64,000 nt of DNA from Candidatus Magasanikiibacteriota bacterium. Lineage in GTDB: Bacteria > Patescibacteriota > Patescibacteriia > Magasanikbacterales > GWA2-37-8. Of the stretch, positions 8,701-32,042 are shown piece by piece; the first letter of the stretch is position 1; the number at the start of each line of letters is the position of its first letter. The notes under the pieces were generated by a model. The model was not told where the DNA came from and made no database searches. It saw nothing but the letters and a program-made list of their open reading frames with translations. The translations under genes were made by a program, and so were the position numbers. The stretch spans positions 4,250 to 68,249 of the forward strand of contig JACOYB010000004.1 of the NCBI GenBank assembly GCA_016182085.1. Reading direction: 5' to 3'.

Positions 8701-8728
8701 GTCATTCCCGCCATAGCGGGAATCCAGT
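8701..8728. repeat. Half-copy of interspersed palindromic repeat (TGTCATTCCCGC-catA-GCGGGAATCCAG)
   Basis: Same 28-nt hairpin unit as at 18108-18135, 27723-27750 and 31963-31990. Confidence 0.8.
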
Positions 8729-8816
8729 GGGCCGGAAGAAGGCTGGAAAAAATCAGCGCTTCCTCTTTGCCACGTCGGCGAGGAGTGAGCTTTCTCAAAA
8801 GAGGAGGCAAAGGACA

Positions 8817-9305
8817 ATGGTAATGGCAATCGACTTCTTGCTTTCGGCCGCCCACCTCAAGCGTGAACTTGGCGAGGAGCTGTTCGAGGCTTTGGTCAGC
8901 TCGAACAACACTGCGGCAGTTCGCAAATTCGCGGAGGAGCTCGTCAAGTTGGGACCCCCCACTGAGATGACCCTCGGCGATCGCGCCTACGACATTCTCG
9001 GCATCCTCAAGGGAGACGAGAAGTCGGTCATCGGCCATACGATGGTCAGCCGCGCCAAGGAGCAGAACGCCCACAACGGGAAGGAAGAGCGAGAGCACGT
9101 CCTAAAGTATCAGGACCAGATTCCCGCCGCCCTCCGCGGCAAGGTCGTCCTCGTCTTCACCGACGACAGGCACCCCGACGACCCCGAGGGCGTCTACTGC
9201 GTTGGCTGGGACGGCAAGCGCTGGGTCAAGGACTGGCGCTGGCTCGACTTTGACGACTGGCGCGGCCGCTATCGGGTTCTCCGTCGCAAGTCCCCGCAGC
9301 CCTAG
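8817..9305 (+). CDS. Hypothetical protein, GC-rich (about 62% GC, strong GC3 bias), probably horizontally acquired
   Basis: Strong SD GAGGAGG 9 nt before ATG 8817; codon usage (CTC/GTC/GGC/CGC) unlike neighbouring genes; no recognisable domain (C-terminal W/D/R-rich). Confidence 0.6.
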   Translation: MVMAIDFLLSAAHLKRELGEELFEALVSSNNTAAVRKFAEELVKLGPPTEMTLGDRAYDILGILKGDEKSVIGHTMVSRAKEQNAHNGKEEREHVLKYQDQIPAALRGKVVLVFTDDRHPDDPEGVYCVGWDGKRWVKDWRWLDFDDWRGRYRVLRRKSPQP

Positions 9306-9388
9306 AATTCTTAGTCGCTCAGAACTTTCGGGTTCTGTGCTCACTTGATCCCTTCGGCTCGCCTGCCGTCAGGCAGGCTCGCAAAAAT

Positions 9389-9426
9389 GCCCACCCTGGG
9401 AAACTAGGGTGGGCAAATTATTTTTT
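9389..9426 (+). terminator. Rho-independent terminator
   Basis: gcccaccctgg-gaaact-agggtgggc hairpin then aaattatttttt; preceded by a second hairpin gcctgcc-gtca-ggcaggc. Confidence 0.6.
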
Positions 9427-9525
9427 AGGGTATCCTATGGCAAATCAACAGGTCGGCTTATTGATTTAATCGCCCGTTTCGTATATATTAGCTAAAGTTC
9501 ATATATATAAATTAAGCTAAACTCT

Positions 9526-10326
9526 GTGTTTTTAGATATTATTAAAGCAATTGTCTTGGGTTTGGTAGAGGGCATTACCGAGTTTTTGCCTATCTCTTCT
9601 ACCGGCCATCTTATTATATTAAACAATTGGTTGAGTTTTAGCCCGGATCTAACGGTAATGTTTGATATAGTGATTCAGTTCGGAGCTATTTTGGCGGTAG
9701 TGGTTGTGTTTTGGAAACGATTATGGCCGTTTGGCAAAGACCAGATTGAGAGGCTTGGGATTTTTAATCTTTGGCGCAAAACCATAGTGGGAGTATTACC
9801 GGCCATTGTTTTGGGCGCGGCGCTAGGCAGTATAATTGAAGAAAAACTATTTAATCCGTTGGTAGTGGCCGCGGCTTTGGTGGCGGGCGGTATTATTTTA
9901 ATTTTAGTGGAAAGAAGACAGGTTACCGCTAATATATTATCTGCCAAAGATATTTCTTATCGCACCGCTTTTTTAATCGGTCTATTTCAATCTTTGGCCA
10001 TGATTCCGGGCACTTCGCGGGCCGCGGCCACAATTATTGGCGCCATGCTTTTGGGGGCAACGCGAGTAGTGGCGGTAGAATTTTCTTTTTTCCTAGCTAT
10101 TCCTACCATGCTAGCCGCTTCGGCATACAGTTTACTCAAATATGATTTAGTAATTAGTGTAAATGATTTTATAATTTTAGGTATTGGTTTTGTCACAGCA
10201 TTTTTTACCGCCTTGGCAGTAATTAAATTTTTATTAAATTATATCCAAAATAATAATTTTAAGGTTTTTGGATATTATCGCATTGGGTTGGGTATTTTGG
10301 TGTTACTATTGTTTATAATATTATAA
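9526..10326 (+). CDS. uppP: Undecaprenyl-diphosphatase (BacA/UppP)
   Basis: Full-length match to UppP (GITEFLPISSTGHLII, conserved C-terminal PGTSRAAATIIG). GTG start assumed. Confidence 0.85.
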   Translation: MFLDIIKAIVLGLVEGITEFLPISSTGHLIILNNWLSFSPDLTVMFDIVIQFGAILAVVVVFWKRLWPFGKDQIERLGIFNLWRKTIVGVLPAIVLGAALGSIIEEKLFNPLVVAAALVAGGIILILVERRQVTANILSAKDISYRTAFLIGLFQSLAMIPGTSRAAATIIGAMLLGATRVVAVEFSFFLAIPTMLAASAYSLLKYDLVISVNDFIILGIGFVTAFFTALAVIKFLLNYIQNNNFKVFGYYRIGLGILVLLLFIIL

Positions 10327-10328
10327 TT

Positions 10329-11264
10329 ATGTCTAATTACGAAATACTTTTGTATTATAAATATACACACATCTCCGACCCGGATGAATTTTGTGATAAG
10401 CAAAAACTGCTTTGCGAAAAATTAGGATTAAAGGGCAGGATAATTATTACCGAAGAAGGCATAAATGGAACGGTAGAAGGCTTAAAAGAAAATACTCAAA
10501 AATATATTGATGAAACTGTTAAAGATTCTAGGTTTGCCGACATGAATTTTAAAAGAAGCGAAGGCACAGGCAATGCTTTTCCTAAACTATCGGTAAAATC
10601 ACGCACCGAAATTGTGAGCGCGCATTTGGGAGAAGATGATATTAACCCAAATGTTATCACGGGTAAATATTTGCCGGCCGAAGAATTACACAAATGGATT
10701 CATAGCGATAAAGAATTTTATATTGTGGACATGCGCAACGACTACGAACATTCAGTTGGATTTTTTAAGGATTCAATTTTGCCGCCGCTCAAACATTTCC
10801 GTGATTTGCCAAAAATTTTGCCAGGCCTGGCGCACTTAAAGGATAAAACAGTGGTGACAGTTTGTACTGGCGGCGTGCGCTGTGAAAAAGCTTCGGGATT
10901 TCTGGTAAAACACGGATTTAAAGATGTGTATCAATTGCACAATGGTATTGTGAGTTATATGGAAAAATACCCAAATGAAGATTTTTTGGGCAAGCTTTAT
11001 GTTTTTGACGGACGCGTAACGATGGCTTTTAATAACCCCGACAAACCGGCAGAAGTGGTAGGTAAGTGCAAAAAATGCGGAAGTTCAAGCGAAAATTTTG
11101 TAAATTGCATGCAGCCAAGCTGCCACGATCATTTTATCTGTTGTGAAAATTGTTTGAGCAGGAAAAAAGAGGCGTTCTGTAATTGGAAATGCGCTTTTGT
11201 TAAAAAATTACGGGATAATTTCTCAATTTTTAAACACAGTGTAAAACATAAAGTTAGCTTATAA
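10329..11264 (+). CDS. trhO: Rhodanese-domain tRNA uridine(34) hydroxylase (UPF0176/YceA/TrhO family) with Cys-rich C-terminal extension
   Basis: CTGGVRCEKASGFL rhodanese active-site loop and overall UPF0176 layout. Confidence 0.8.
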   Translation: MSNYEILLYYKYTHISDPDEFCDKQKLLCEKLGLKGRIIITEEGINGTVEGLKENTQKYIDETVKDSRFADMNFKRSEGTGNAFPKLSVKSRTEIVSAHLGEDDINPNVITGKYLPAEELHKWIHSDKEFYIVDMRNDYEHSVGFFKDSILPPLKHFRDLPKILPGLAHLKDKTVVTVCTGGVRCEKASGFLVKHGFKDVYQLHNGIVSYMEKYPNEDFLGKLYVFDGRVTMAFNNPDKPAEVVGKCKKCGSSSENFVNCMQPSCHDHFICCENCLSRKKEAFCNWKCAFVKKLRDNFSIFKHSVKHKVSL

Positions 11265-11276
11265 ATATAAGGCGTT

Positions 11277-11615
11277 ATGAAAATAGTTTCCGGAGTGGTG
11301 GTAGAAGGCCGTAAAAAAGGCAGAGAGCTGGGATTCCCCACAGCCAATATTATTTTGTTAGAAAAAATGGAAGGTGGAATTTATGCCGGTAAGACTATTA
11401 TTTCCGATAAAGAATACATTGGCGCGATTTTTGTTTATCCGGGCGGCGATTTATTTGAAGTGCATCTTTTGGATTTCGATGGAGATCTTTATGGACAGGC
11501 GTTGAAAGTAGAAGTGGGGGAAAAGATAAGAGATTCCAAACAATTTGATAATGCGGAAGATTTAAAAGCGCAGATAGCTGCAGATATTGCTCATATTAAA
11601 AATCTAAGTGTTTAA
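11277..11615 (+). CDS. Stand-alone riboflavin kinase (flavokinase domain)
   Basis: GRKKGRELGFPTANI motif typical of the RibF C-terminal kinase domain; 112 aa. Confidence 0.75.
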   Translation: MKIVSGVVVEGRKKGRELGFPTANIILLEKMEGGIYAGKTIISDKEYIGAIFVYPGGDLFEVHLLDFDGDLYGQALKVEVGEKIRDSKQFDNAEDLKAQIAADIAHIKNLSV

Positions 11616-11618
11616 ATT

Positions 11619-12203
11619 ATGTTTACCGGCATTATAAAGAAAACTTCGGTTGTAAAAGATATATACAAGAAAAACGAAAACTTGTTTGCTTCTATTTCCA
11701 AAGAAAAAGATTGGCCGGTAGAGTTGGGGCAGAGTATTGCTATAAACGGCGTATGTTCCACCGTAAAAAGCTTTGATAAAAATAGTTTTTTGGTGGAGTG
11801 GATGCCGGAAACGCTCAAAAAAACCAGTGTAAATAGTTTTAAAAAAGGCACGATGGTAAACTTGGAAACCAGTTTAAATTTAAGCACGATGCTGGATGGT
11901 CATATTGTGCAGGGTCACGTGGATACGGTAGGCAAGGTGGTGGAAATAAAACCAAAAAAAGATTCAAAGGTTATAAAAATAAAACTGCCGTCCCAATTTA
12001 TGAAGTTTATTGCCGACAAAGGTTCGGTGGCAGTGGACGGTGTAAGTTTAACCGTGGTAGATACGGGTAAAGATTGGTTTACGGTATCGCTTGTTAGTTA
12101 TACGATAGAAAATACTAACTTTAAAAACACCAAAAAAGGGGATTTGGTAAATATTGAAACTGATGTGCTAGCCAAATATCTGTATAAACTGATGAAGAAG
12201 TAA
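11619..12203 (+). CDS. ribE: Riboflavin synthase alpha subunit
   Basis: MFTGII N-terminus, two lumazine-binding repeats. Confidence 0.85.
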   Translation: MFTGIIKKTSVVKDIYKKNENLFASISKEKDWPVELGQSIAINGVCSTVKSFDKNSFLVEWMPETLKKTSVNSFKKGTMVNLETSLNLSTMLDGHIVQGHVDTVGKVVEIKPKKDSKVIKIKLPSQFMKFIADKGSVAVDGVSLTVVDTGKDWFTVSLVSYTIENTNFKNTKKGDLVNIETDVLAKYLYKLMKK

Positions 12204-12207
12204 TTTT

Positions 12208-13530
12208 TTATGATTCTAAATCTTCTATATCTTCTCTATATTTATCAGCTTGCGCCATCACATTATCTCCGTAGAAGCGGTAACGAAGATTGGTACCGCC
12301 GGAGAAGTAGCGCATGGCAGCTTTCCATTCGCCGTCACGAGTGCCATCGGCGCCGTTATTTTTGAGCAGTAGTGCCGCGGCCATAAATGCGTCTCGTATA
12401 TCCCACGGGTCAGCCGGACTTTTGCCGGTTATTGCGCTGACTTTGTCTTTGTATCCCATCCAAGTAGAAGGAATAAATTGGGCTGGACCCATAGCGCCTC
12501 CCCAGCCAAGCTGGGAGCCATCCTTATTTTTCATTGGGCAAGAAACCGGAGTAACATCCGGATCACGTCCTAGTTCCTCCGTAATTTTTACAAATGGTTC
12601 TTGGTCACGCGTTGGTTTCATAATAACACGCCAGCCTTTTTCGGGCGGGTCGCCGGGGCGATTGCAGGTGCCAACATTTTTACCCAGATTTGATTCTTGG
12701 GTAAGAATGGCAAGGAGAAAAGCCGCGGATACGCCAGTTTGTCTGTCAGTGGCCTGGGCAATTTCTACCGCTTGTCCGAAAGTGATCTGCTTGCCAACGC
12801 CCAAGAGTTCATAGATACGGCTTCGGATTTCAGCGGCATGTTTTTTACTATCTTGCAAAAGGTTTTGATAAGTAAGTTCCAGTCCCTTGGTTTGTTCGAG
12901 TAGTTGATTTTGTTCCTGTAGTTTTCCGCCCAAAGCGCCCTGCTGAATCCTGGCTACATTTAACAACTTCTCGGCATCGTCTTGCTGATCCTCATAGGCA
13001 ATTTGTTGCTGGTTTAATTGTTTTTGTATTCCTTTTGCTTCCCGTACCAAATCGTTTATGGAAGCGGACAGCCGCTCATAATTTGTTGCTTCCACGAATG
13101 CTTCGCTTAGTCCGTCTTCAACCAAAATATTAAGCAAGAACATTTGTTCGTCTTTTTGTTGGAGCGTACGAAGCATTTTTGCTAGTTCTATACGCAGACC
13201 AGCGATTTTTGATTTATTGGCATCTATGGCTTTGGAAGTTTTTACTAATTTTTGTTCTAAATCTTCAATTTTTACGTTGGTAGCTTTAATTTCCAGGCGC
13301 AGCCTAGCCTCTTCGTTTCTAAGCTGTTTGATTTTATTGGCCAAAGTATTTTTCTCGCCTTTGGTAACGCTGATTTGCTTTTCTAATTCCTTAATTTGAG
13401 ATTCAATTGCCTGCAACTCATTTTCCAGCTGCTCTCGGTTGCTATCTGGGGCGGCTATGCTAATATTAGCCAAAAACAAACTAATCACTGCGAGTAGTAG
13501 TATGGATTTTTTTAACAATGCGTATTTCAT
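12208..13530 (-). CDS. Secreted protein: N-terminal signal/TM, long coiled coil, C-terminal lytic-transglycosylase (SLT)-like domain
   Basis: Heptad-rich 30-230 region; C-terminal ..AILTQESNLG.. catalytic-Glu motif of the SLT/goose-lysozyme-like fold. Confidence 0.6.
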   Translation of the reverse strand: MKYALLKKSILLLAVISLFLANISIAAPDSNREQLENELQAIESQIKELEKQISVTKGEKNTLANKIKQLRNEEARLRLEIKATNVKIEDLEQKLVKTSKAIDANKSKIAGLRIELAKMLRTLQQKDEQMFLLNILVEDGLSEAFVEATNYERLSASINDLVREAKGIQKQLNQQQIAYEDQQDDAEKLLNVARIQQGALGGKLQEQNQLLEQTKGLELTYQNLLQDSKKHAAEIRSRIYELLGVGKQITFGQAVEIAQATDRQTGVSAAFLLAILTQESNLGKNVGTCNRPGDPPEKGWRVIMKPTRDQEPFVKITEELGRDPDVTPVSCPMKNKDGSQLGWGGAMGPAQFIPSTWMGYKDKVSAITGKSPADPWDIRDAFMAAALLLKNNGADGTRDGEWKAAMRYFSGGTNLRYRFYGDNVMAQADKYREDIEDLES

Positions 13531-13692
13531 GAAGTTTTCATTAAAATCAGGCTATTGTAGAGTATCAATTTTTACTATTCTTTTCAAGAAAAATATTGGC
13601 TATCATTCTAATTTTGAAGCGCCAAGCGTAATTATCCACAGCTAATTCTACATAAGGCTTGTTTTTTGTTATAATTGCTAAAGTTAAGATAA

Positions 13693-13714
13693 TTATGAAA
13701 ATACATTTTCATAA
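13693..13714. promoter_or_regulatory. Perfect palindrome TTATGAAAAT-ac-ATTTTCATAA in divergent promoter region
   Basis: 10-bp arms; lies between divergently transcribed 13530(-) and 13743(+) genes. Confidence 0.35.
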
Positions 13715-13742
13715 CTTAATTTATTAATTTATTTTTAAGCTT

Positions 13743-16373
13743 ATGTTCAAGCTTAAGGAAGTTCTCAGGTGGGGCGTATTGTCCCTGGTTTTTAGTTTGC
13801 TCATTGTATTTTCAGCGCGAGCGCAGACCGCAACGGATACTAGTTCTGGTTCTACCCAAACTGCTGATCAGCAGTGTGTAAGCGGTGGTGGAAAATTGTG
13901 TAACAGCTCATCCGGTTCAAGCTGGTGTTCATATTCCACCAGTCCTTGCCCGGCTTATGATTCGGCCAGTTGCGCGGCGCAAAGCGGAGAATGGTGCGCT
14001 TATTCTGGCGGTACCGGCGGTTATTGCAACAGCACTCCGGGAAATTGTCCAATAAATGATGAAGCGACTTGTACGGCAAAGAGCAGGCCTTGGTGCAAAT
14101 ATTCTTCCGGCTCCGGCTCTACGGCTAGTACTTATGGAGGGTGGTGTGGCGAGGTGGGGTATAAATGCCCGGCCTATGACCAGCCGTCTTGTACCGCTCA
14201 AGGCAGTGAATGGTGCACATCTTCGTATGGCTCAGGATGGTGCAGTACTGTTCCGGGAAGTTGTCCTATAAACGATAAGGCCACGTGTGAATCAAAAAGC
14301 CGTACTTGGTGTATAGATAGCAGCAGTTATAGCACTAGTGGCGGTTGGTGCGCCTCTACTGGCAGCAGCTGTCCGAGTACTTCCACAAGCACAACTCCTA
14401 CTCCTAGCCCTACCCCCGTTTATTCTTCTTGGCCAAGCACGGAAAGCGATTGTACTAAGTATAAAGGCGTATGGTGTGTAAGTACTTATACCGGTGGTTA
14501 TAGCATGATGTCCGGTTCTTGTATGATGGCTGGGCAAACTTGTCCTTCGGCCACTCCGGCTGGGAAAATGAGTTGTTGGGATGGAACTTACGTTGATACA
14601 TATTCCAGTTGTCCGACTACTCCCAGCGGAAAGAGCGACTGTGAAACAAAAGGATATAAATGGTGCGATTCAACTGCTGTCTCTAGCTATACTACATATA
14701 GTTCCGGCTGGTGTACGGGAAAAACTTATAATTGTCCTACTTATCCGCCGGCAGGAAAAATGTCTTGCCCGGATGGGGTTACTTTTGCCACTACTCTAAC
14801 CGAGTGTCCTAAGGCTGATGCTGGAGTAACAAGCCCCATCTCACCAACGCTAAAAACTTGCCCGGACGGATCCGTTATAGATAAATCATGGGTATGCCCG
14901 GTTGTTTTTTTGACTTGTTCAGACGGCGTAACCAAAGTTAGGAGCTTGACCGATTGTCCGATAAAAACCGAAGACAGTATTTCTACGTGTCTTAACAAGA
15001 AAGGCGTTTGGTGTTTGGACAAAGCGGGAGGGAACGGTTATTGCGCGTTACAGGGTGGATGTAAGACGGCTTTGCCAGATGAAAAAGAACCGGTTGTAGA
15101 AAAAGAAGCGCTGGATGCGAAGCAAATCAAGCTAGTAGAAACCATGAAGAAAGATTATGCGCGAAATTTGGATACCCTGGAAAAAACATTTAAACGCCTG
15201 GGAGATACGGAATCACTCGCAAAAATCACGGTTCTTAAGGAAAAATTATCTTCATTGCCAGCGGATACATCGGTTTTTGATGCCTTAGAAGCTACGAAAG
15301 ACGATATAATGACCCTGCGTGAAGTAAAGGATGATTTAATTGAGAAAAAAGGCGAGATTGAAATGTCAGAAAGAGATGTAGAGATGCAAGCAAAAGCCTT
15401 AAAACAGATGAAGAAGAACATGCTTATATTTGAAAAACAGCTTAACAAAATGAGCACCAAAGCCGCTCAACTGAAAAAGCAAGGATTTTCTTTGCCAAGC
15501 ACGCTAGATGATCTTTTAACGCAAGGAAAAGAATTAATTAAAAAAATAAAAGCCAGTACGAATTTTGAGGAAGCGCGAGATGCGGGAGAATCGCTGGCCG
15601 AATTGAGTGAAGATTTAAATTTGTGGGCTACAAACTTGGATCAATTGGCAAAAATCAGTTCGCTGCTTAGAAATATAAATGCCCAAATTACGAGAAGAGA
15701 GACGGCGCTTAAGAGTGTGCGGACAGTAGCTGCCAGATTAAAAGTTGATTTGCAGGCAAATTTAGACGAGGTCAGCGCGACACTTGCATCGGTTAGAGAA
15801 GCGTATGGACAGTTAAAAACAAAGGAATGGAACCAAGACGAACCGTTTGAATTTGTTCAGTCAGCCATCATTGATAAACTTGAGGATATGGACAATGATA
15901 TGGCTAATATCCGAGCGCTTGCCAACCTTAAAGCTTCGGTAAATAAAATCGGAGCGCAAATTAATAATTTTAATGTCAGAATTGCCCGTTTGGCAAAACA
16001 AAAGAAAGATGTGGTGGAGTTGCAAGGCTTGGTTGAGCAGCTAAAAGAAACACATGGCGAGCTAAAAGCTTTGTCCGGAGAAAAGTTAGCTAATTTGGAT
16101 GTGGAGAGTGTTATAGAAAAATTAGGCGCGGCCAGCGCGCTGATGGAAGAAATTATGGATTTGTTAAAAATTAACGCTCCCTCTCTTCTGGAGAAACAAT
16201 TAAAACAGAATTTTAAAGTTGAAAAAATAGATGTTCCGGAAGTTGAAAAACAGGTAATCCGCGCTTATAGAGTAGCCACATTTTTCCGCCGAGCTCCCGA
16301 GCAGATGGCGCAATACGCCACCGGCGTTAAGGAGGCAATAAATAGATGGAGAAATCGTTTGGCGATTGATTAG
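13743..16373 (+). CDS. Secreted protein with ~8 tandem Cys-rich modules (C-x4-5-WC-x6-14-G[WY]C-x4-7-CP) followed by ~450-aa coiled-coil region
   Basis: Signal peptide; repeats such as CAAQSGEWCAYSGGTGGYCNSTPGNCPINDEAT / CTAQGSEWCTSSYGSGWCSTVPGSCPINDKAT; C-terminal half heptad-rich; no known family. Confidence 0.6.
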   Translation: MFKLKEVLRWGVLSLVFSLLIVFSARAQTATDTSSGSTQTADQQCVSGGGKLCNSSSGSSWCSYSTSPCPAYDSASCAAQSGEWCAYSGGTGGYCNSTPGNCPINDEATCTAKSRPWCKYSSGSGSTASTYGGWCGEVGYKCPAYDQPSCTAQGSEWCTSSYGSGWCSTVPGSCPINDKATCESKSRTWCIDSSSYSTSGGWCASTGSSCPSTSTSTTPTPSPTPVYSSWPSTESDCTKYKGVWCVSTYTGGYSMMSGSCMMAGQTCPSATPAGKMSCWDGTYVDTYSSCPTTPSGKSDCETKGYKWCDSTAVSSYTTYSSGWCTGKTYNCPTYPPAGKMSCPDGVTFATTLTECPKADAGVTSPISPTLKTCPDGSVIDKSWVCPVVFLTCSDGVTKVRSLTDCPIKTEDSISTCLNKKGVWCLDKAGGNGYCALQGGCKTALPDEKEPVVEKEALDAKQIKLVETMKKDYARNLDTLEKTFKRLGDTESLAKITVLKEKLSSLPADTSVFDALEATKDDIMTLREVKDDLIEKKGEIEMSERDVEMQAKALKQMKKNMLIFEKQLNKMSTKAAQLKKQGFSLPSTLDDLLTQGKELIKKIKASTNFEEARDAGESLAELSEDLNLWATNLDQLAKISSLLRNINAQITRRETALKSVRTVAARLKVDLQANLDEVSATLASVREAYGQLKTKEWNQDEPFEFVQSAIIDKLEDMDNDMANIRALANLKASVNKIGAQINNFNVRIARLAKQKKDVVELQGLVEQLKETHGELKALSGEKLANLDVESVIEKLGAASALMEEIMDLLKINAPSLLEKQLKQNFKVEKIDVPEVEKQVIRAYRVATFFRRAPEQMAQYATGVKEAINRWRNRLAID

Positions 16374-16499: not shown

Positions 16500-17765
16500 A
16501 TGTGGATGTTGGCAGCGGTTTATTTTTTACTTTTTGTATGTTTGGCTTGGAAGAATTTCCGCTCAGCCGTATTTTTATTTATCCTCCTTCTGCCGTCCTA
16601 TCTTATTCGTTTTGAGGTTTTTTATTTTAGAAAAATAGTTTTTCCATCCACAGTTTTAGAGTTATCTTTTGGAGCTTTATTTTTGGTTTGGCTCATTAAA
16701 TATAGCCGAGAAGACATTAAAAAAATTATAACCGCATCCAAAAAGCACGTATGGTTTTTTATCGTTTTTGATTTATTTTTTCTCTCTTCGGTAATAAGTA
16801 TTTTTGTCAGTGATATGCCCATTCCATCGCTGGGGGAGTGGCGGGCTTATTTTTTGGAACCAATGATTTTTTTCTTGATTTTGGTGGGCAGACAGATTAG
16901 TATTTATAACTTAAACTCCGCTTTAGCGATCTCTACTTTAAGCATCAGTCTTTATGCCGTCGCGCAAAAATTTACGGGCTGGGGGATTGCTACGCCAGAG
17001 TGGGTGGCCGAATCTACACGGCGGGTGACGGCCTTTTATTCTTCGCCCAACGCGGTGGGATTATATTTGGCGCCGGTAGCGATGATTTTGTTATTTATTA
17101 TTTATAAGATGCGGGGGAATAGAAATCGCAATTTTTGGTTGGCCAGCATGATTTGTTTATTGTCGCTGGCCGCGCTTATTTTTACCAAATCCCAGGGCGC
17201 ATGGATTGGGTTAGGAGCAGGGTTGTTAGTATTTTTATTTTTTATAGGGTATAAAAAAATAGTTGCTGGCTTGGCGATTGCGGGGGTAATTTTTTCTTTG
17301 GCTGCGCCCTCAATGCGACAAGCAGTTTTATTCCAAGATCAAGCCAATCAAAACCGCCTGCGGCTTTGGGGTTATTCGTGGACATTTTTAAAACAGTCGC
17401 CAAATAATTTTGTCTTGGGTACGGGTGTGCGCCAATTCTTTAGAAAAGTACAAAAACCATATTATGATAAAATGATTATGGAAAGATTGATTTATCCTCA
17501 TAATATATTTCTTAATTTTTGGACGGAGATCGGATTATTGGGCATGCTGGCGGCGGTTATAATATTGGGATATGCTTTTTATTTATCTAATAAAATTAGA
17601 CAGGCTGACAAAATAATGGGCGCGGGGCTGATGGCGGCGCTAACGGTTTTGGTAGTGCATGGGCTGGTAGATGTGCCTTATTTTAAAAACGATTTAGCCT
17701 TTTTATTTTGGATTTTAATCGCCAGTGTATTTATAATCGAAATGAGCGAGAGAAATAGCCAGTGA
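16500..17765 (+). CDS. O-antigen ligase/polymerase (Wzy_C) family membrane protein
   Basis: ~10 TM helices with a central ..KSQGAWIGLGAGLL.. loop typical of O-antigen ligase domain. Confidence 0.6.
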   Translation: MWMLAAVYFLLFVCLAWKNFRSAVFLFILLLPSYLIRFEVFYFRKIVFPSTVLELSFGALFLVWLIKYSREDIKKIITASKKHVWFFIVFDLFFLSSVISIFVSDMPIPSLGEWRAYFLEPMIFFLILVGRQISIYNLNSALAISTLSISLYAVAQKFTGWGIATPEWVAESTRRVTAFYSSPNAVGLYLAPVAMILLFIIYKMRGNRNRNFWLASMICLLSLAALIFTKSQGAWIGLGAGLLVFLFFIGYKKIVAGLAIAGVIFSLAAPSMRQAVLFQDQANQNRLRLWGYSWTFLKQSPNNFVLGTGVRQFFRKVQKPYYDKMIMERLIYPHNIFLNFWTEIGLLGMLAAVIILGYAFYLSNKIRQADKIMGAGLMAALTVLVVHGLVDVPYFKNDLAFLFWILIASVFIIEMSERNSQ

Positions 17766-17859
17766 GATATTTATAACCGCTTGCGAGTTATAAATATTGA
17801 GCCTGGATATTTCCGAGCGAATGAGTTTATATGGTTTACCTATATTGTTAAAATGGACT

Positions 17860-18082: not shown

Positions 18083-18227
18083 TGTCATTCTGAGTGAAGC
18101 GAATAATCCCTGTCTGTCATTCCCGCCAAAGCGGGAATCCAGTCGAATCAACAATTGTCTGGATTCCCATTGCGATGGGAATGACAATTAAACCGACAGA
18201 GATCCTTCACTCCGTTCAGGATGACAA
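18083..18227. repeat. Full copy of nested palindromic intergenic repeat (outer IR GTCATTCTGAGTGAAG / CTTCACTCCGTTCAGGATGAC; inner hairpins GTCATTCCCGC-caaa-GCGGGAATCCAG and CTGGATTCCC-attgcgat-GGGAATGACA)
   Basis: Seen directly; related copies at 8701, 27618-27832, 31961-32042. Confidence 0.85.
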
Positions 18228-18253
18228 TTAATTTTTAAATTAAGTATCATTCT

Positions 18254-24661: not shown

Positions 24662-24673
24662 GTTTATATTATC

Positions 24674-24746
24674 TCGTGCCGCGAGTCAGAGTCGAACTGA
24701 CCACGCCAGCCTCTTCAGGGCTGCGCTCTACCGATGAGCTATCGCG
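24674..24746 (-). tRNA. tRNA-Phe (anticodon GAA)
   Basis: Reverse complement GCCGCGATAGCTCATCGGTAGAGC..CTGAAGA..GGTCAGTTCGACTCTGAC..CGCGGCA folds as canonical tRNA. Confidence 0.85.
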
Positions 24747-24752
24747 GCTTAT

Positions 24753-24989
24753 TTATATCCTATTTTTTAAAAATCGTCTACCGAAACCAGTTTTGAAATA
24801 TTTTTCCCTGGCCAGTGCTTTATTTTTAGATAAACACGCTTCGTAATATACCAATTGAAGTGGTCGTCTAGCTAATGTGGCCGGCACATGTCCGTCACAG
24901 TGTTCTTTGAATCTAATCTTTAAATTTTCGCTATATCCAATGTAAAGTTTGCTATCTTTTAAGCTTTTTAATACATAAGTATAGTGCAT
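24753..24989 (-). CDS. GIY-YIG nuclease family protein (UPF0213-like, 79 aa) inserted between tRNA-Phe and tRNA-Ala
   Basis: MHYTYVLKSLKDSKLYIGYSENLKIRFKEH...RPLQLVYYEAC matches GIY-YIG motif; start at ATG 24989 (upstream part of the ORF is tRNA/repeat sequence). Confidence 0.7.
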   Translation of the reverse strand: MHYTYVLKSLKDSKLYIGYSENLKIRFKEHCDGHVPATLARRPLQLVYYEACLSKNKALAREKYFKTGFGRRFLKNRI

Positions 24990-25055
24990 ATTAATGTGGC
25001 TGCGCTCCCGCGCCCGCAACGCCTGAGCAAGCTCAAGCTTGCGATGGCGGGCGGG

Positions 25056-25077
25056 TACCGATGAGCTATCGCGGCTT
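25056..25077. repeat. 22-bp direct repeat duplicating the 5' end of tRNA-Phe plus 3 flanking nt; together with 24727-24748 it brackets the GIY-YIG gene
   Basis: TACCGATGAGCTATCGCGGCTT identical at both sites. Confidence 0.7.
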
Positions 25078-25080
25078 TTG

Positions 25081-25153
25081 TGGACCCTATCGGGCTCGAA
25101 CCGATCACCCCCGCGTTGCAAACGCGGTGCTCTACCAAATGAGCTAAGGGCCC
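25081..25153 (-). tRNA. tRNA-Ala (anticodon TGC)
   Basis: Reverse complement GGGCCCTTAGCTCATTTGGTAGAGC..TTTGCAA..GGTTCGAGCCC..AGGGTCCA; G3:U70 Ala identity pair present. Confidence 0.85.
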
Positions 25154-25190
25154 GTAACCAATTAAAAAAGTAAAAATATTCTATCAATAG

Positions 25191-25219
25191 TTAACAAAAA
25201 AGTCAACTGATGATATAAT
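25191..25219 (+). promoter_or_regulatory. Sigma70-like promoter TTAACA-17-TATAAT upstream of the MgtC-family gene
   Basis: Seen directly. Confidence 0.4.
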
Positions 25220-25252
25220 GATTTTGTCTTTATTAATTAAAATTAATATATT

Positions 25253-25672: not shown

Positions 25673-25754
25673 TTTTCTTTTTGAAGCAGACCAGAAAAAT
25701 AATCGTAATAAAAATAACCCGCCCAGATTCTTGGACGGGTTATTTTAAATATTG

Positions 25755-26822: not shown

Positions 26823-26904
26823 ACAAGCTTTGCATTATGAATAATGAGCCATAAGTTATGGACCCAAAAGGTCCTTAGCATATAATTCACAATTCACAAT
26901 TCGT

Positions 26905-27606
26905 TTAGAAGTTTGATTCTATTTTTTTAACGGTCAAATTATTGGATTTGACGATAATGTGCCGGGTAACCATTGTGGTTTTGCCGTGTTTTTTGATTGC
27001 AGATATAGTAATCGTATTTACTCCATTTGACAAGTCAATTGGCACTTCAAACCTTCCTTGATTATTTGCCATGGCCTCCTTGCCGTTTACGGTCAGACGT
27101 ACCTCTTTTTCAGTTTCACCTTGCACGATTGCTACCGGCTTATTGGAAATATACCCTTCAATAGGGCTAAATACAGCCAGTTTTGGCGGCTGTAAAATGC
27201 CATTTACTTGCCAGATAAGATAACTGACAAATCCAACCACTAAAACTCCCAGGGAAACATATCTAAAAAGATTGGATAATGAACTCATACGCCATAATCG
27301 TAAGACACGAAGCGGGTGAGTCGGCTTGTAATTGTGCAAATCCGATTCTTGTGAAAATTGATGCAAAAAGCTGGCTGGATTTAAATTCAGAGTTTCCGCG
27401 TACTGACGGATATAAGCCAAACGGTGGGCTTTGGCTTGGGGTAGTTCTTTAAAACGCGCGCTTTCAATGGCCTCTAAATATTTTATTGGTATCCTCGTTT
27501 TTTTAGAGATATCTTCCAAAGATAAGCATAGTTCTCGGCGAGTTTTTTTTAAACGTTCTCCCACCCGGATCAGCGGCTCTAATTTTTTTAGACAAAACAC
27601 TGCCAT
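26905..27606 (-). CDS. XRE-type HTH domain membrane protein, RodZ-like
   Basis: N-terminal HTH (LKKTRRELCLSLEDISKKTRIPIKYLEAIE), single TM, C-terminal beta-rich domain. Confidence 0.5.
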   Translation of the reverse strand: MAVFCLKKLEPLIRVGERLKKTRRELCLSLEDISKKTRIPIKYLEAIESARFKELPQAKAHRLAYIRQYAETLNLNPASFLHQFSQESDLHNYKPTHPLRVLRLWRMSSLSNLFRYVSLGVLVVGFVSYLIWQVNGILQPPKLAVFSPIEGYISNKPVAIVQGETEKEVRLTVNGKEAMANNQGRFEVPIDLSNGVNTITISAIKKHGKTTMVTRHIIVKSNNLTVKKIESNF

Positions 27607-27617
27607 ATGCTACTTTC

Positions 27618-27832
27618 TTGTCATGCTGAATTTATTTGCAAGTCGAGTGAGAGAAAAGTAAAAGTTTACTTTTCCGAACGAGCGAAGCAAATATGTTTTA
27701 ACTATATTTCAGCATCTTCATTTGTCATTCCCGCAACAGTGGGAATCCAGTATCCATAAATTGTCTGGATTCCCGCCTTGGCGGGAATGACAATGTACGT
27801 ATAGAGATCCTGAAACAAGTTCAGGATGACAG
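27618..27832. repeat. Composite copy of nested palindromic intergenic repeat (GTCATGCTGAAAT / ATTTCAGCATC IR; GTCATTCCCGC-aaca-GTGGGAATCCAG; CTGGATTCCCGCCTTGGCGGGAATGACA; ATCCTGAAACAAGTTCAGGATGAC)
   Basis: Seen directly. Confidence 0.8.
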
Positions 27833-27839
27833 TTATTTG

Positions 27840-30137
27840 TTAATTATCTTTTTCTTCTTCAGGAATCAGGTCTTCAAACACCGGCGCTCCGCCCGAATTT
27901 AAAGTTTGCCTCTCCTCGGGTATATCATCGGATTCAGTTGGCCGCATATGTTCGGTAAATAGCTCTCTAGGTTTGGCACCGTCCGCTGGTCCTACTATAC
28001 CAGCTTCTTCCATTTCATCCAAGAGGCGGGCAGCTCGGGCATAGCCGATTCTCATACGGCGCTGCAGAAGCGAGGCGCTAGCTTTGCCGGATTCAATTAT
28101 TATTTTTTTAGCTTCATCAAAGAGCGGGTCTAAATCGCTGCTGGCGCCGCCAAACATATTTACGGTTCCACTGCTGCTACCGCCGCCCCTGGAAGTAATA
28201 GATTCATCATATACTGGCGGTTCATCGCCTTTTAAATTATTTATCACTCGTTTCATTTCTTCTTCAGAAACAAAAGCGCCTTGCAAGCGTTTTGGTTTGG
28301 AAAGCTCGGCTGTTAAAAATAACATATCACCGCGCCCTAATAATTTTTCCGCGCCCGGTGAATCTAAAATGGTGCGGGAGTCAATAAGCGATGCCACCGA
28401 AAAAGCGATGCGAGCCGGAATGTTGGCTTTCATAAGACCGGTAATAACTTCCACACTTGGCCGCTGCGTGGCCACGATTAAATGTATGCCAACCGCGCGG
28501 GCCATTTGAGCGATACGAATAATACCGGCTTCCACTTCGCTGGCAGCCATAGCCATCAGGTCGGCAAGTTCATCAATTATAAATACAATATACGGAAGCG
28601 GTTCGGCCGCGGATTTGTTGTATGAACCAATATCACGTTTACCGGCTTCAGCAAGCATGGTAAAGCGTCTATCCATTTCGCCAATGGTCCACTTTAAAGC
28701 GTTTACGGTTTTGGCTGGGTCGGTAATTACCGGCGTCAGTAAATGAGGAATGCCATTATATAATGTTAGTTCCACGCGTTTAGGATCAACCATTATCAAA
28801 CGCAATGTTTCGGCTGTGTTTTGGTAAAGCAAACTTAAAATAATTGTATTAATACAAACAGTTTTTCCCGAACCGGTGGAACCAGCCACGAGAAGGTGGG
28901 GCATTTTAAGCAAATCTCCGAACCAAACTTTGCCAGCTACGTCTTTGCCGAGCGCGATCATCATGTTATGTGTATCTGGGTTTTTAAATTCCGGGCTTTC
29001 CAGCAATTCGCGAAGTGTGACCATGGCTACTTTTTGGTTTGGCACTTCAATACCGACAAGAGACTGTCCGGGAATCGGAGCCTCAATACGAATTGGGTGG
29101 GCGGCGAGCGCCAGCGCCAAATCATTGCTTAAATTGGTGATGCGGGTAAGTTTGACGCCTTTGGCAGGCTTCATGGAGTATTGGGTAACCGTTGGGCCGA
29201 CACGCACTTCACCCATATCCACTTCAATACCAAAATTTTGAAAGGTATCACGGATCACTTCGGCATTGCCTTTAATATCTCCGGAAGTTGGTTTGGTTTT
29301 GGACGTATATAATAAATCAATTGACGGCAAATCACGAATAATTGGTTTAGGAATTTTAGGCATTTCAGTTTTTTCTTCGGTAATTTCTTCCTCACTTTCT
29401 ATTTGTTCATTTTCAACATCTTGTTTTGCAATTACGCGCTGCTGAAACACTCGCTGTTCTTCTTCCTCTTCTTCTATTTCTTCTTCATCCATTTCCGCGC
29501 TTGCGGTTTCTTGATAGTCGCCCTTTATTTGAAACGCGACTTTTTCATTTTTAAATGAGCCGAAGAAAGCAATAATTTGTTGTCCGAACCAGCCAAGCAA
29601 TAAAAAGAATTTTTTATGCAGTTCAACAATTTGCGCCAAGGATGTATTGAATAAAAAGATAATGCCAATAAGCAGGAAGGCGACAAGCACCATGGTGGCG
29701 CCCCAATAGCCGATATATTGGTTTAGAAACCAAGCAGGTAAATAGCCGATAAGTCCGCCACCGTACCCTTGGGTAGCCAGATCAAACATTTCTTCGGCCG
29801 GTTTTTGTAAATGAATTAAGCCGTTAAATCCGGTGATAAATAAAATTGAACCAAGCCAGTGAGTGGCGCGGTACTCGTACTCCATGTCTTTGATTATCAA
29901 AATTGCGACCAGAATTAGGATAATAGGGAAAATGTAGCGAACCTGGCCAAAGGTAATGGAAAGCAGCGAATCAATAAATTGTCCGGCCACTCCGGCGAGT
30001 GAAAAGAAGCTGAGGGCGGAAATACCGCCGATAATAAATAACAAAATAGCCAAAAGACCTCGGCTAATATCTGGATTTAGGTTTATTTTTTCTGAAAATG
30101 ATAATTTGCGGTTTCGTTGTCTGGGCATAACAGGCAT
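27840..30137 (-). CDS. ftsK: DNA translocase FtsK/SpoIIIE
   Basis: N-terminal TM helices, acidic linker, motor domain with Walker A AGSTGSGKT and C-terminal gamma domain; start at ATG 30137 (MPVMPRQ). Confidence 0.9.
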   Translation of the reverse strand: MPVMPRQRNRKLSFSEKINLNPDISRGLLAILLFIIGGISALSFFSLAGVAGQFIDSLLSITFGQVRYIFPIILILVAILIIKDMEYEYRATHWLGSILFITGFNGLIHLQKPAEEMFDLATQGYGGGLIGYLPAWFLNQYIGYWGATMVLVAFLLIGIIFLFNTSLAQIVELHKKFFLLLGWFGQQIIAFFGSFKNEKVAFQIKGDYQETASAEMDEEEIEEEEEEQRVFQQRVIAKQDVENEQIESEEEITEEKTEMPKIPKPIIRDLPSIDLLYTSKTKPTSGDIKGNAEVIRDTFQNFGIEVDMGEVRVGPTVTQYSMKPAKGVKLTRITNLSNDLALALAAHPIRIEAPIPGQSLVGIEVPNQKVAMVTLRELLESPEFKNPDTHNMMIALGKDVAGKVWFGDLLKMPHLLVAGSTGSGKTVCINTIILSLLYQNTAETLRLIMVDPKRVELTLYNGIPHLLTPVITDPAKTVNALKWTIGEMDRRFTMLAEAGKRDIGSYNKSAAEPLPYIVFIIDELADLMAMAASEVEAGIIRIAQMARAVGIHLIVATQRPSVEVITGLMKANIPARIAFSVASLIDSRTILDSPGAEKLLGRGDMLFLTAELSKPKRLQGAFVSEEEMKRVINNLKGDEPPVYDESITSRGGGSSSGTVNMFGGASSDLDPLFDEAKKIIIESGKASASLLQRRMRIGYARAARLLDEMEEAGIVGPADGAKPRELFTEHMRPTESDDIPEERQTLNSGGAPVFEDLIPEEEKDN

Positions 30138-30237
30138 ATTGTAGCATAATTTTATATTGCGAGAAAGAAAAAATATTCCAGCTTGGAAGTTTACAACAGG
30201 TTTGCTATATGTTAGGGTTTTTATAAGGGAGGAAGTC

Positions 30238-30603
30238 ATGTCCCAACAGCCGGAACTGATTTCTCTGGATGGTGAACGGCAGAAACGCTGGCGAAAACTG
30301 AGGCGGTGGCTGCGTCAACGACGGCAAAAACGGCAAAAGGCCAGAAAAAGCGCATGCCCTTGTCAGCGGTCTAAAAGGGTGCAAATTGTCGGTGTCTCAA
30401 TCCCCACGCTCAACGCTGCATACGGAGCAGCTGCCTGGGCTTTGGGTTGGTCATTGGAAATGGCGGTGGTTCTATCTGTCACTGCGGCCCTGGCGCTTCT
30501 TGGAGTATTCGGTTATATGCGCAATGGGCATGGAGTTGAAACGCAGCCGCACCTGCCAAGTTGCCCTCATCAGAAAAATGCAGAGCTATCCGCTCGACGA
30601 TAA
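30238..30603 (+). CDS. Hypothetical 121-aa protein, GC-rich foreign-looking gene: Arg/Lys-rich N-terminus, one TM helix, Cys/His-rich motifs
   Basis: Perfect SD AGGGAGG 6 nt upstream of ATG; enterobacterial-like codon usage (CTG, CGC, GCG); followed by strong terminator. Confidence 0.5.
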   Translation: MSQQPELISLDGERQKRWRKLRRWLRQRRQKRQKARKSACPCQRSKRVQIVGVSIPTLNAAYGAAAWALGWSLEMAVVLSVTAALALLGVFGYMRNGHGVETQPHLPSCPHQKNAELSARR

Positions 30604-30669
30604 CTCTGTTTTTGCTCTTTCACCTGTCGAGAGTTGTTCATGTATAAAATATTTTTATCCAGGGCCAAA

Positions 30670-30712
30670 CAAAAAATCCTCCAATGTTGCATTGGAGGAT
30701 TTTTTGTTTTTT
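30670..30712. terminator. Strong bidirectional rho-independent terminator
   Basis: aaaaaa-TCCTCCAATG-ttgc-ATTGGAGGA-ttttttgtttttt. Confidence 0.8.
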
Positions 30713-30987
30713 CTGCATTAAGCTGCGACAAGAATTGCATGTTTTAATGAGCGAATCAAATTTAGAAAACTTTCTCTGAACAAAGAAATGTTCAAGAGAA
30801 AAGAGAGAGATTTGTTTAATAAATTCGATCCGATTGAGACATCAACTCTTGCGCAACTTGATGAAGAAAAATATATTATAAAAAAATACTGCACTATATT
30901 TTATAACGAAAAAATATTTTGTCAAGTTTAGGCATAAATTTTTTATAAAATCTATTTTTGATAGAAAGTTTTTTTATTTTTTTAAAA

Positions 30988-31057
30988 CAAAAAAGCCGCC
31001 AACCAATCATGTTCCAAAATATTTAGAACATAGTTGGTGTGGTGGCGGCTTTTTTTG
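30988..31057. terminator. Long imperfect hairpin with flanking A- and T-runs; terminator for minus-strand GC-rich ORF
   Basis: aaaaaaGCCGCCAACCAATCATGTTC...GAACATAGTTGGTGTGGTGGCGGCttttttt. Confidence 0.6.
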
Positions 31058-31091
31058 CGCCTTCCATCGCACACGGGCTTGGAGCTGTTGC

Positions 31092-31523
31092 CTACGAGGC
31101 GTTCAGGCACCAGATGATGGCCGCTCGGCCCCGCGTGAGGGCCGCGTCTCGATCGGTTAAAGGAGACATCATTAACCGAGATAACAACCGCGGATCATCC
31201 CCTCGCTGCCACCAGTTCAAGAGCCAGGTAGAGTTGGGGAAATCCGCCGGCGGTCGTCGCATCGGCATGACCTCTTTCGCCAGTCGGAAGATCAGTACGG
31301 CCATCGCTTTCTGGACATGCTGTTGAGTCATCTTGTAGTCGGAGACTTTCTCAGGGAGAGGTGACTTGTCCAGGTAGGTCACTGCTTCGGGCAGAGCTTC
31401 TCGCGCCCGTTTCATCAACAGCCGTCTGGTATGTGAGCGGATGTATGCCAGCTCTACTTCACAGTGGTTCTCGGCCAGCACTTCTTGGACGAACTCATTC
31501 AAGAGTTCGAGGATGGATTTCAT
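31092..31523 (-). CDS. Hypothetical 143-aa protein, GC-rich foreign-looking gene
   Basis: GC3-biased codon usage unlike flanking DNA; SD AAGGAA upstream; no recognised domain. Confidence 0.5.
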   Translation of the reverse strand: MKSILELLNEFVQEVLAENHCEVELAYIRSHTRRLLMKRAREALPEAVTYLDKSPLPEKVSDYKMTQQHVQKAMAVLIFRLAKEVMPMRRPPADFPNSTWLLNWWQRGDDPRLLSRLMMSPLTDRDAALTRGRAAIIWCLNAS

Positions 31524-31960
31524 AGAGTTTTCCTTGTGGAGGACTAAAGTTGAACATACTAAAAAAATGTAAAAATGTCAATATTAAAAATGGAAAAGTA
31601 TCAAATTTATGGATAAACTGTGGATAAAAAGCCAATTTTTTAGCAGATTTTCAGCTTTAATGCTAAAAATACTCTAAAATTAGCCAAAATAATCATTTTC
31701 CTTGACAAACTTTAAAATTCGTTAAGTTCTTGACAATCCTTTATTTTTAGCGTAATATGTAAATACTTAACACTTCTGTGGAGAGAGAAAACGGTTTTTT
31801 GGCTTAAATTAGCGCAAATCTAGCAATCCTGGTTTCATCTGGATTGCAAAGTCGTGCAAGGAATAAATAAATTTACATGCTGGCCTTGCTTTTATTGGCT
31901 AAACTTTAAGAAAAAAGGAAAAAACGCCCTCAAGGCGCCAATTTTTGTTTTACATACCAA

Positions 31961-32042
31961 CTGTCATTCCCGTCAAAGCGGGAATCCAGACAAAACAGAT
32001 CGATTAGATGCTAGATTCCAGCTGAAGCGGGAATGACAATGA
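31961..32042. repeat. Copy of palindromic intergenic repeat (CTGTCATTCCCGTCAAAGCGGGAATCCAG ... GCTGAAGCGGGAATGACAATG) just upstream of rpoB
   Basis: Seen directly. Confidence 0.8.

Follow-up and report, generated by a model that had tools for sequence, protein, structure and literature searches.

Organization of the repeat modules in the window

The 64,000-nt stretch of DNA analyzed here (the window) belongs to a metagenome-assembled genome (MAG) of an uncultured Candidatus Magasanikiibacteriota bacterium (assembly GCA_016182085.1, contig JACOYB010000004.1, positions 4,250 to 68,249), and it contains a family of short palindromic repeats whose relationship to the neisserial NTS/dRS3 repeats and to the Ssn nucleases is the subject of this work. 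The repeats occupy four loci, all of which had been listed in an initial annotation of the window and all of which are present. Their neighbors according to Pfam are those proposed in that annotation: genes for a DUF167 protein and malic enzyme, for RodZ-like and FtsK proteins, and rpoB; the RecA gene lies just past the RodZ-like gene. Comparison of the window open reading frames (ORFs) with Pfam, in which nearly all likely genes were covered, gave no match to transposase, integrase, RAYT (REP-associated tyrosine transposase) or IS110 families, in agreement with the earlier remark that no transposase was nearby. Rfam searches at gathering scores detected only three tRNAs in the window and left the repeats unmatched.

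The basic unit, named type I, has the form TGTCATTCCCGC-N4-GCGGGAATCCAG and is found in seven copies across the four intergenic loci. Searching for GTCATTCCCGC-N4-GCGGGAATCCAG with up to three mismatches located copies at 8701-8727(+), 18116-18142(+), 27724-27750(+), 27765-27791(-), 31963-31989(+), and 32011-32037(-), and no match in 100 dinucleotide shuffles of the window; this shared module bears out the initial proposal of one family of nested palindromic repeats. The looser ATTCCC-N8-GGGAAT pattern, which that annotation had described as the core, added the seventh copy (18163-18182), so that seven were seen where 0.26 were expected. Six type I copies match the 20-bp dRS3 pattern exactly, and one with a single mismatch. 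The 8-mer TGTCAT[T/C/G]C occurs 11 times in the window, in every case within these modules (seven of type I and four of a second type, type II, against about 0 expected), and a repeat finder independently grouped the same copies into direct and inverted families. The 28-nt type I module is predicted to fold as single-stranded DNA (ssDNA) into a hairpin of 8 bp (ATTCCCGC / GCGGGAAT) with a 4-nt loop. Since the bases next to the hairpin (5' TGTC, 3' CCAG) are conserved and non-palindromic, the module is oriented.

Three of the four loci contain inverted pairs of type I modules with their GTCAT ends outward, separated by spacers of 16, 14, and 21 nt; these gene-less pairs measure ~70-77 nt each, and there are, in addition, two nested composites in which a type I pair is enclosed by type II modules (TGTCATYCTGA...GGATCTCTGTC). 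The ssDNA folds of the singlet, the pairs and the composites are all better than those of shuffled sequences, with z scores from -4.5 to -8.9. The fourth locus is the singlet, 8700-8727(+), with the sequence TGTCATTCCCGCCATAGCGGGAATCCAG (fold -9.1 kcal/mol, z -4.5). It had been taken for a half copy; it is actually one complete module, is found with identical sequence in Logan contigs L002/L003, and lies 110 nt upstream of a GC-rich orphan ORF (8838-9305).

The first composite, 18083-18226, is 144 nt long in total (fold z -6.4). It consists of a type II module at 18083-18114(+), TGTCATTCTGAGTGAAGCGAATAATCCCTGTC; a type I pair at 18115-18186, formed by modules 18115-18142(+) and 18159-18186(-) with the 16-nt spacer (fold -21.4 kcal/mol, z -5.8), the right one carrying the compensated stem variant CCCAT/ATGGG; and a type II module at 18195-18226(-), where the + strand reads GACAGAGATCCTTCACTCCGTTCAGGATGACA. 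The second, 27619-27831, occupies 213 nt between the RodZ-like and FtsK genes (fold -46.2 kcal/mol, z -8.9). Its left arm is a type II-like variant at 27619-27716(+), TGTCATGCTGAA...TTCAGCATC, with an extra hairpin in the loop (27634-27692, ...GAGTGAGAGAAAAGTAAA/TTTACTTTTCCGAACGAGCGA...) that resembles the type III palindromes found at 17725-17833 and 54080-54150. The type I pair follows at 27723-27792, with modules 27723-27750(+) and 27765-27792(-) and the 14-nt spacer (fold -25.7 kcal/mol, z -8.7), and the composite is closed by a type II module forming a perfect hairpin at 27803-27831(-), which reads TGTCATCCTGAACTTGTTTCAGGATCTCT on its own strand. The outer GTCAT(T/C)CTGA arms described initially were thus recovered at 18083-18114(+), 18195-18226(-), and 27803-27831(-), whereas at 27619-27716 the arm is a different variant (GTCATGCTGAA...TTCAGCATC). 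The remaining pair, 31962-32038, is inverted relative to the other two and lies 46 nt upstream of the rpoB start; it comprises module 31962-31989(+) and a degenerate module at 32011-32038(-), with the 21-nt spacer (fold z -4.8).

Conservation of the hairpin

The hairpin is under selection. A set of 50 distinct modules, none of them matching the pattern used to fetch the loci, was taken from the metagenome loci and compared; the outer three stem pairs and the C at +1 are set by the pattern used to extract these modules and are uninformative. Each of the three loop-proximal stem pairs showed 12 compensatory double changes, such as CCCAT/ATGGG (the variant also present in the window at 18159-18186) and CCTGC/GCAGG. 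Loop-proximal pairing was Watson-Crick in 97% of cases, versus 60% in shuffles (shuffle maximum 72%). Outside the stem, the non-palindromic T at -1 and C, A, and G at +2 to +4 were conserved in 41-49 of the 50 modules.

Relationship to the neisserial NTS/dRS3 repeats

The Neisseria Transformation Sequence (NTS) is a 28-nt oriented hairpin with the consensus CGTCATTCCCGCGMAVGCGGGAATCYRG; it contains dRS3, and about half of the neisserial dRS3 copies lie in NTS (Chenal et al., Nat Commun 2025; PMC11893778). SsnA of N. meningitidis, a 94-aa protein with a single GIY-YIG domain, binds the NTS hairpin only as ssDNA and on one strand, does not bind its RNA form, and nicks ssDNA a few nucleotides 5' of the hairpin; cutting depends most on the three bases that precede the palindrome, and binding on the C after it (PMC11893778). 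In various phyla, ssn homologues have NTS-like sequences, the Ssn-related motifs (SRM), in their flanks, and at least one is nearby in 71% of the homologues; ssn genes typically lie between two inverted modules, and the paper used a 5-kb flank and a search pattern derived from 29 genomes (PMC11893778). Strand-specific binding and cleavage of ssDNA have been demonstrated only for the homologues of N. meningitidis, N. elongata, N. wadsworthii, and Wolbachia pipientis, and in Neisseria transforming DNA bearing the motif is integrated less as a result of nicking by Ssn (PMC11893778). In the same paper dRS3 figures as the reported target of a phage recombinase, and Patescibacteria or the candidate phyla radiation (CPR) are not mentioned (PMC11893778).

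A resemblance of the window repeats to dRS3 had been noted in the initial annotation, and it goes further than was proposed: the best copies match NTS at 26 of 28 nt, with 2-3 mismatches overall. In the best copies the mismatches are a T for C at position 1, which places T instead of C before GTCAT, and a C for G at position 13; because of this loop-proximal C, the window stem is one pair shorter than that of NTS. All seven type I modules retain GTC before the palindrome and C after it. The window modules thus share with NTS/dRS3 the ATTCCC-N8-GGGAAT palindrome, the oriented GTC (5') and C(C/T)AG (3') flanks, and the predicted ssDNA hairpin, and with NTS and SRM a multicopy, intergenic distribution and, in fetched loci, the inverted arrangement around a small single-domain GIY-YIG gene. 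Both traits of SRM are therefore found, namely a hairpin-forming repeat with conserved oriented flanks (three bases 5' and a C 3'), and inverted copies that bracket single-domain GIY-YIG genes in some of the fetched contigs. Differences from the published system were also observed. A second module type wraps the first in a conserved ~145-nt composite, the modules reside in a Patescibacteria MAG, and the variant is known here from sequence alone. The window spacers (14-21 nt) also differ from those of the motif-fetched IMG/VR contigs, where 48-57 nt were commonest among the matches listed.

Association of the modules with Ssn-type GIY-YIG genes

Loci were fetched by DNA motif alone, at least 120 of them in viral contigs (using a general motif) and at least 120 in metagenome contigs (using the window-specific variant TGTCATTCCCGCC-N3-GCGGGAATCCAG). 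About 40% of the metagenome contigs listed were below 45% GC, and several came from Hainich groundwater. We use the term Ssn-type operationally, for any small protein with GIY-YIG as its single domain whose gene lies between NTS-like modules. GIY-YIG ORFs of 95-107 aa were found between a module on the + strand and another on the - strand, within ~40 nt, in L011, L036, L074, L099, L100, L253, L237, and L342; in L303 an Ssn-type ORF lies between two modules of one orientation. The inverted bracket is formed by the exact type I variant of the window in L237, L253, and L342, and by the general motif in L011, L036, L074, L099, and L100. In L237 and L342 the gene is reduced to a 3' fragment, leaving 172 and 207 nt between the arms. 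The window pairs have the same convergent geometry as the gene-bearing units, with only 14-21 nt between the arms. Since the geometry is shared and truncated intermediates occur, these pairs can be read as the gene-less end of a progressively shorter series, and they may represent gene-less derivatives of module-ssn-module units.

An Ssn-type gene enclosed by type II modules is present in L233, L351, and L353. In L233 (a 457-kb contig, GC 0.37) the gene lies between TGTCATTCTGAGCAGAGCGAAGAATCTCTGTCC and GGACAGAGATCCTTCACTGCGTTCAGGATGACA, and, except for one base, the right type II arm of the window composite (18195-18226) has the sequence that lies 3' of the Ssn-type gene both in L351 and in L233. 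Searching with the L233 protein retrieved close homologues labeled Magasanikbacteria, Patescibacteria, and Gracilibacteria. The L351 protein (P0123, corresponding to MBI2038213.1; 97 aa, annotated as Ca. Magasanikbacteria) is encoded between type II modules, the contig ending within the right-hand one. It is 38-47% identical to the module-bracketed proteins of L074 and L100, and shares with them the C-terminal motif KKW..K..LIE..NP.W.DL. MBI2038213.1 comes from the same sequencing runs (SRR12113430, SRR12113420) as the contigs of the window, and its accession is 820 numbers away from MBI2037393.1, which is identical to a window protein; it probably belongs to the same MAG. L233, L353, and L351 share one chromosomal neighborhood, with genes for GSDH (L233, L353), TspO, and an RF-1-domain protein and then ssn, in this order, and a PIF1-type helicase gene comes after ssn in L233 and L353. 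Since this neighborhood is constant, the Ssn-type gene looks resident there, while the modules disperse.

Directly downstream of the Ssn-type gene, L233 (6748-7092) and L353 (10330-10570) carry a gene for a small UPF0213/YhbQ-like GIY-YIG protein, and therefore these two contigs contain tandem GIY-YIG genes from different clades. A PDB search returned UPF0213 proteins only and no Ssn structure, and PHROGs gave no match for either MBI2038213.1 or the GIY-YIG protein of 78 aa encoded in the window.

Dispersal of the repeats and their absence from relatives

At least 26 distinct type I pairs of 65-84 nt were collected, three of them from the window and the other 23 from 21 metagenome contigs. Among the matches listed, the nested composite (type II, I, I, II) was also found in L234, L235, L242, and L279, and partly in L244; the L279 copy and window 18083-18227, compared over 145 nt that include the junction, are 87% identical. 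The pair 18115-18186 is 85% identical to L233 9294-9361, and the pair 27723-27792 is 90% identical to a pair in L247. BLAST comparison of the window with these contigs showed that similarity is limited to the repeats, no flanking window gene having a homologue there. The L233 pair lies in frame within a 479-aa ORF for an O-antigen-ligase-like membrane protein, where it reads ...SFPPKRESSQFERWIPIAMGMT..., so the elements are not strictly intergenic.

The nearest genomes by rpoB among the GTDB species representatives were L131 (80% identity) and L132 (75%). L131 is syntenic with the window for recA, the RodZ-like gene, ftsK, and rpoB, and contains no modules in the 14.8 kb that span this recA-rpoB region; its rodZ-ftsK gap is shorter than about 120 nt, versus 233 nt in the window, of which 213 nt are repeat. 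The DNA fetched from upstream of rpoB in L131 and L132 is also free of modules. The flanks of the pairs are A/T-rich and often prolong the inverted repeat. Logan contigs break inside the repeats (L001 and L351), as fits multicopy sequence; a break of this kind is the start, at 18117, of one of the Logan contigs of the window. The initial annotation had considered the repeats likely to be non-autonomous mobile elements. This view holds for their gene-less form, similar to that of miniature inverted-repeat transposable elements (MITEs) or REP (repetitive extragenic palindromic) sequences, since small GIY-YIG genes elsewhere are flanked by identical modules, the pairs and the composite occur in unrelated contexts, and the syntenic region of L131 lacks them; the mobility itself is presumed.

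Probable assignment to the Ssn system and alternative explanations

Based on these results, we consider the repeats to be Ssn-related hairpin motifs, a variant of neisserial NTS/dRS3, in the genome of an uncultured Candidatus Magasanikbacteria, with a probability of roughly three in four. The system itself was published in 2025; what is new here is the host and the layout, that is, the gene-less inverted pairs, the nested composite, and the variants lying outside the published patterns. The cognate Ssn-type enzyme would be encoded outside the window, MBI2038213.1 being the best candidate, and it would nick these sites strand-specifically when they are single-stranded, for example in DNA imported by transformation. 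In an inverted pair each strand has, toward its 5' end, a module in the right orientation, so that a nick would fall just outside the element on each strand. As in Neisseria, such nicking would modulate recombination, and it might in addition disperse the module pairs as non-autonomous elements. We infer cleavage in this organism, the enzyme responsible for it, and the mechanism of mobility. Patescibacteria/CPR bacteria are thought to be naturally competent and dependent on DNA uptake (PMC12455944), and an effect on incoming ssDNA is therefore plausible.

Several observations weigh against this assignment. The modules fall outside the strict NTS definition (up to one mismatch) and are NTS-like only, and the degenerate SRM pattern HGTCWYN(0-2)YYVSBRHN(0-5)WNVSBRGN(0-2)RNCYNB has 0 matches in the window: type I modules miss it because one loop-proximal position is C where R is required, and type II modules miss it in the stem. 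This pattern is a search tool and not a biochemical definition. In addition, the Ssn-type label is operational instead of being based on homology to N. meningitidis SsnA (E < 1e-10) or on assignment to CDD cd10448, the 64-kb window contains no Ssn-type gene, and MBI2038213.1 is flanked by type II and not by type I modules, its placement in the same MAG resting only on accession proximity, taxonomic label, and shared runs. Regarding dispersal, the DNA upstream of rpoB differs too much from that of L131 and L132 for a precise empty site or target to be located in the alignment, so only presence or absence is scorable, and the target-site duplications that the initial annotation suggested looking for were found in none of the 26 pairs.

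A bolder reading is that the 65-84-nt pairs and the ~145-nt composite are non-autonomous elements moved in trans by the Ssn-type GIY-YIG protein, the module-ssn-module units constituting a new class of hairpin-ended ssDNA transposons, based on GIY-YIG and active in CPR. The progressively shorter units, the occurrence of conserved units in unrelated sites, the module-free syntenic region in the closest relative, and the lack of target-site duplication are all compatible with it. We know of no Ssn element for which transposition has been demonstrated, and we regard this reading as speculative and rather unlikely.

The assignment to the Ssn system was also weighed against systems that produce similar repeats. 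An architecture of two inverted hairpins with a short spacer, intergenic, multicopy, and without target-site duplication would equally suit REP/REPIN-type elements (REPINs being REP doublets that form hairpins) mobilized by an IS200/IS605-related RAYT whose gene would lie in another part of the genome, and the analogy is drawn in the Ssn paper itself (PMC11893778). The REP/REPIN-RAYT systems of Pseudomonas and E. coli and the bacterial interspersed mosaic elements (BIMEs) indeed have in common with the window repeats the inverted pairs of short hairpins forming a larger hairpin, the intergenic location, the mosaic clusters, the lack of target-site duplication, and a single-copy 'domesticated' enzyme gene flanked by repeats. 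However, the 5' motif here is TGTCAT and not the GTAG typical of REP, and the gene bracketed by the modules in nine fetched loci codes for a GIY-YIG nuclease and not for an HUH/Y1 transposase; no Y1_Tnp match was found among the window ORFs, and no RAYT-specific search of the fetched loci was made. Membership in the REP/REPIN-RAYT group is not supported for these reasons, and we give this origin a very small chance. Smaller still is the chance that the repeats are structural RNA or terminator-insulator hairpins of independent origin that happen to look alike, an alternative that had been raised from the outset. The intergenic location, the strong folds, the position of the composite 18083-18226 between co-directional genes, and the -35-like ATGACA module ends facing the malic enzyme gene and rpoB would suit it. 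Nevertheless, a terminator scan classified 0 modules as terminator-like, none being followed by a T-run, and Rfam gave no match. The non-structural flanking bases are conserved, different genomes have the sequence and not only the structure in common, and the 28-mer and the 144-nt composite recur in unrelated genomes and settings, with identities of up to 87-90%; moreover, SsnA does not bind the RNA form (PMC11893778). Secondary effects of the modules on transcripts could still occur.

The report of dRS3 as a phage recombinase target (PMC11893778), together with the GC-rich orphan ORFs (0.63, 0.56 vs 0.43) that adjoin the modules at 8700 and 31962, led us to consider the modules as dRS3-like target sites at which a phage or IS110-type recombinase inserts foreign DNA. 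Since the window yielded no recombinase, integrase, or phage gene and the GC-rich ORFs are not bracketed by modules, we consider this improbable; such a role would in any case add to membership in the Ssn-linked family and not replace it. We judge it just as improbable that the nuclease acting on the modules is the 78-aa GIY-YIG protein of the window (24756-24989). Its single domain, its Ssn-like size, a catalytic spacing (Y5, Y16, E62) close to that of SsnA (Y6, Y17, E64; PMC11893778), and a distance of 2.6 kb between its gene and the composite at 27619, less than the 5-kb flank of that paper (PMC11893778), would make it a candidate. Against this, it is only about 35-39% identical to Ssn-type proteins (about 37 bits) and lacks the C-terminal KKW..K..LIE..NP.W.DL motif. 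Its relatives in four CPR lineages are flanked by a tRNA 5' fragment and a different conserved hairpin and not by GTCAT modules, which are absent from 20 kb of L004, and none of the 240 motif-fetched loci listed encodes its clade. It was accordingly set aside as a partner enzyme. Integron attC sites were likewise dismissed, as would be inferred from the lack of GTTRRRY/RYYYAAC ends (by eye) and of a Pfam integrase in the window.

Two further groups of elements resemble the window repeats. Neisserial intergenic mosaic elements (NIMEs) and Correia MITEs are also intergenic mosaics of short units, bounded by dRS3-type inverted repeats and located near variable genes. In contrast to them, the window elements are far more compact, are nested and not arrayed, and lack the Correia TA duplication and integration host factor (IHF) site; the hosts of NIMEs and Correia elements are phylogenetically remote from the window organism. 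IS200/IS605 elements share the strand-specific recognition of subterminal ssDNA hairpins, the offset cleavage and the lack of target-site duplication, but differ in enzyme chemistry. The window hairpins, unlike theirs, are arranged as true inverted terminal repeats, and any transposition of the window elements is presumed.

The 78-aa GIY-YIG gene and its tRNA setting

The 78-aa gene, 24756-24989(-), is the sole GIY-YIG gene in the window and codes for a single-domain protein (Pfam PF01541, E 6e-15) identical to MBI2037393.1, which is annotated as from a Candidatus Magasanikbacteria bacterium and encoded on a 410-kb contig; short Logan contigs assembled from runs SRR12113430 and SRR12113420 carry identical genes. 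It belongs to a separate, tRNA-linked CPR clade that has its own conserved hairpin, and it probably stands outside the repeat system described above.

In the window, 24676-25153(-), the gene ends 4 nt before an intact tRNA-Phe gene and is preceded by a copy of nt 1-20 of tRNA-Phe, then a 42-nt GC-rich hairpin at 25011-25052 (GCCCGCCATCGCAAGCTTGAGCTTGCTCAGGCGTTGCGGGCG), and then nt 21-30 of the tRNA. The same layout was found with tRNA-Asn in Roizmanbacteria (CP066689.1), with tRNA-His in L348 and with tRNA-Thr in L004, the coordinates in relatives being L004 9900-10410, L345 3900-4312, and L348 3930-4316; in L004 a divergent hairpin is present on both sides of the gene. The 42-nt hairpin (GCCCGCCATCGCAAGCNTGAGCTTGCTCAGGCGTTGCGGGCG) is 41/42 identical in three CPR lineages, the proteins being only about 67-72% identical to that of the window. 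Rfam searches around this GIY-YIG/tRNA unit with E values up to 10 returned nothing meaningful. The unit may be a cassette targeting tRNA genes, or the hairpin may be the own ssDNA site of this clade.

Other features of the window

Three orphan ORFs, 8838-9305, 30240-30603, and 31092-31523, have a GC content of 0.63, 0.55, and 0.56, respectively, versus 0.43 for the window, the first of them having been pointed out already in the initial annotation, and none has a match in Pfam or PHROGs. GC-rich orphan ORFs adjoin the module loci at 8700 and 31962, a placement that recalls neisserial NTS/dRS3 near variable or acquired genes. The ATGACA sequence at outward module ends (...GGATGACA, ...GAATGACA) forms -35-like hexamers at 18221-18250(+), 32033-32061(+), and 27728-27701(-), with the right spacing for -10-like hexamers that closely precede the malic enzyme gene and rpoB, as a consensus match only.

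The type III palindromic family, which does not start with GTCAT, has the form ...CGAAATGAG(C/T)GAGAGAAATA ... TATTTCCGAGCGAATGAG... and is represented at 17725-17833(+) and 54080-54150(-), with a related core (27640-27700) in the loop of 27619-27716; further copies lie in L297 at 4442-4510 and 7671-7738. The first window copy is located between an O-antigen-ligase-like (Wzy_C) gene and the DUF167 gene, beside the composite 18083-18226, and the second between ruvC and a 1919-aa ORF; 54080-54147 is 88% identical to a groundwater contig. That ORF (54145-59904) contains 183-nt tandem-like repeats with 67-78% identity and has weak matches to the InlB B-repeat and GH127 domains. Another large ORF, 41689-46827, codes for a 1712-aa protein with subtilase/PKD domains; its GC content is 0.54, with a local peak of 0.58, versus 0.43, and it may have been horizontally acquired.

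Implications for Patescibacteria and the Ssn family

If this assignment is correct, the Ssn/NTS hairpin-repeat system would extend to Patescibacteria, and it would include variants of the module that are missed by the published search patterns although Ssn-type genes lie between them. Such variants would provide new enzyme/site pairs for ssDNA tools, and they do not overturn the current understanding of the system. The series running from gene-bearing units through truncated ones to pairs with 14-21-nt spacers suggests how the dispersed repeats may have originated, and the conserved nested composite of ~145 nt appears to spread as one unit. Strand-specific nicking of ssDNA, tied to dispersed hairpins of this kind, could shape recombination in CPR bacteria.

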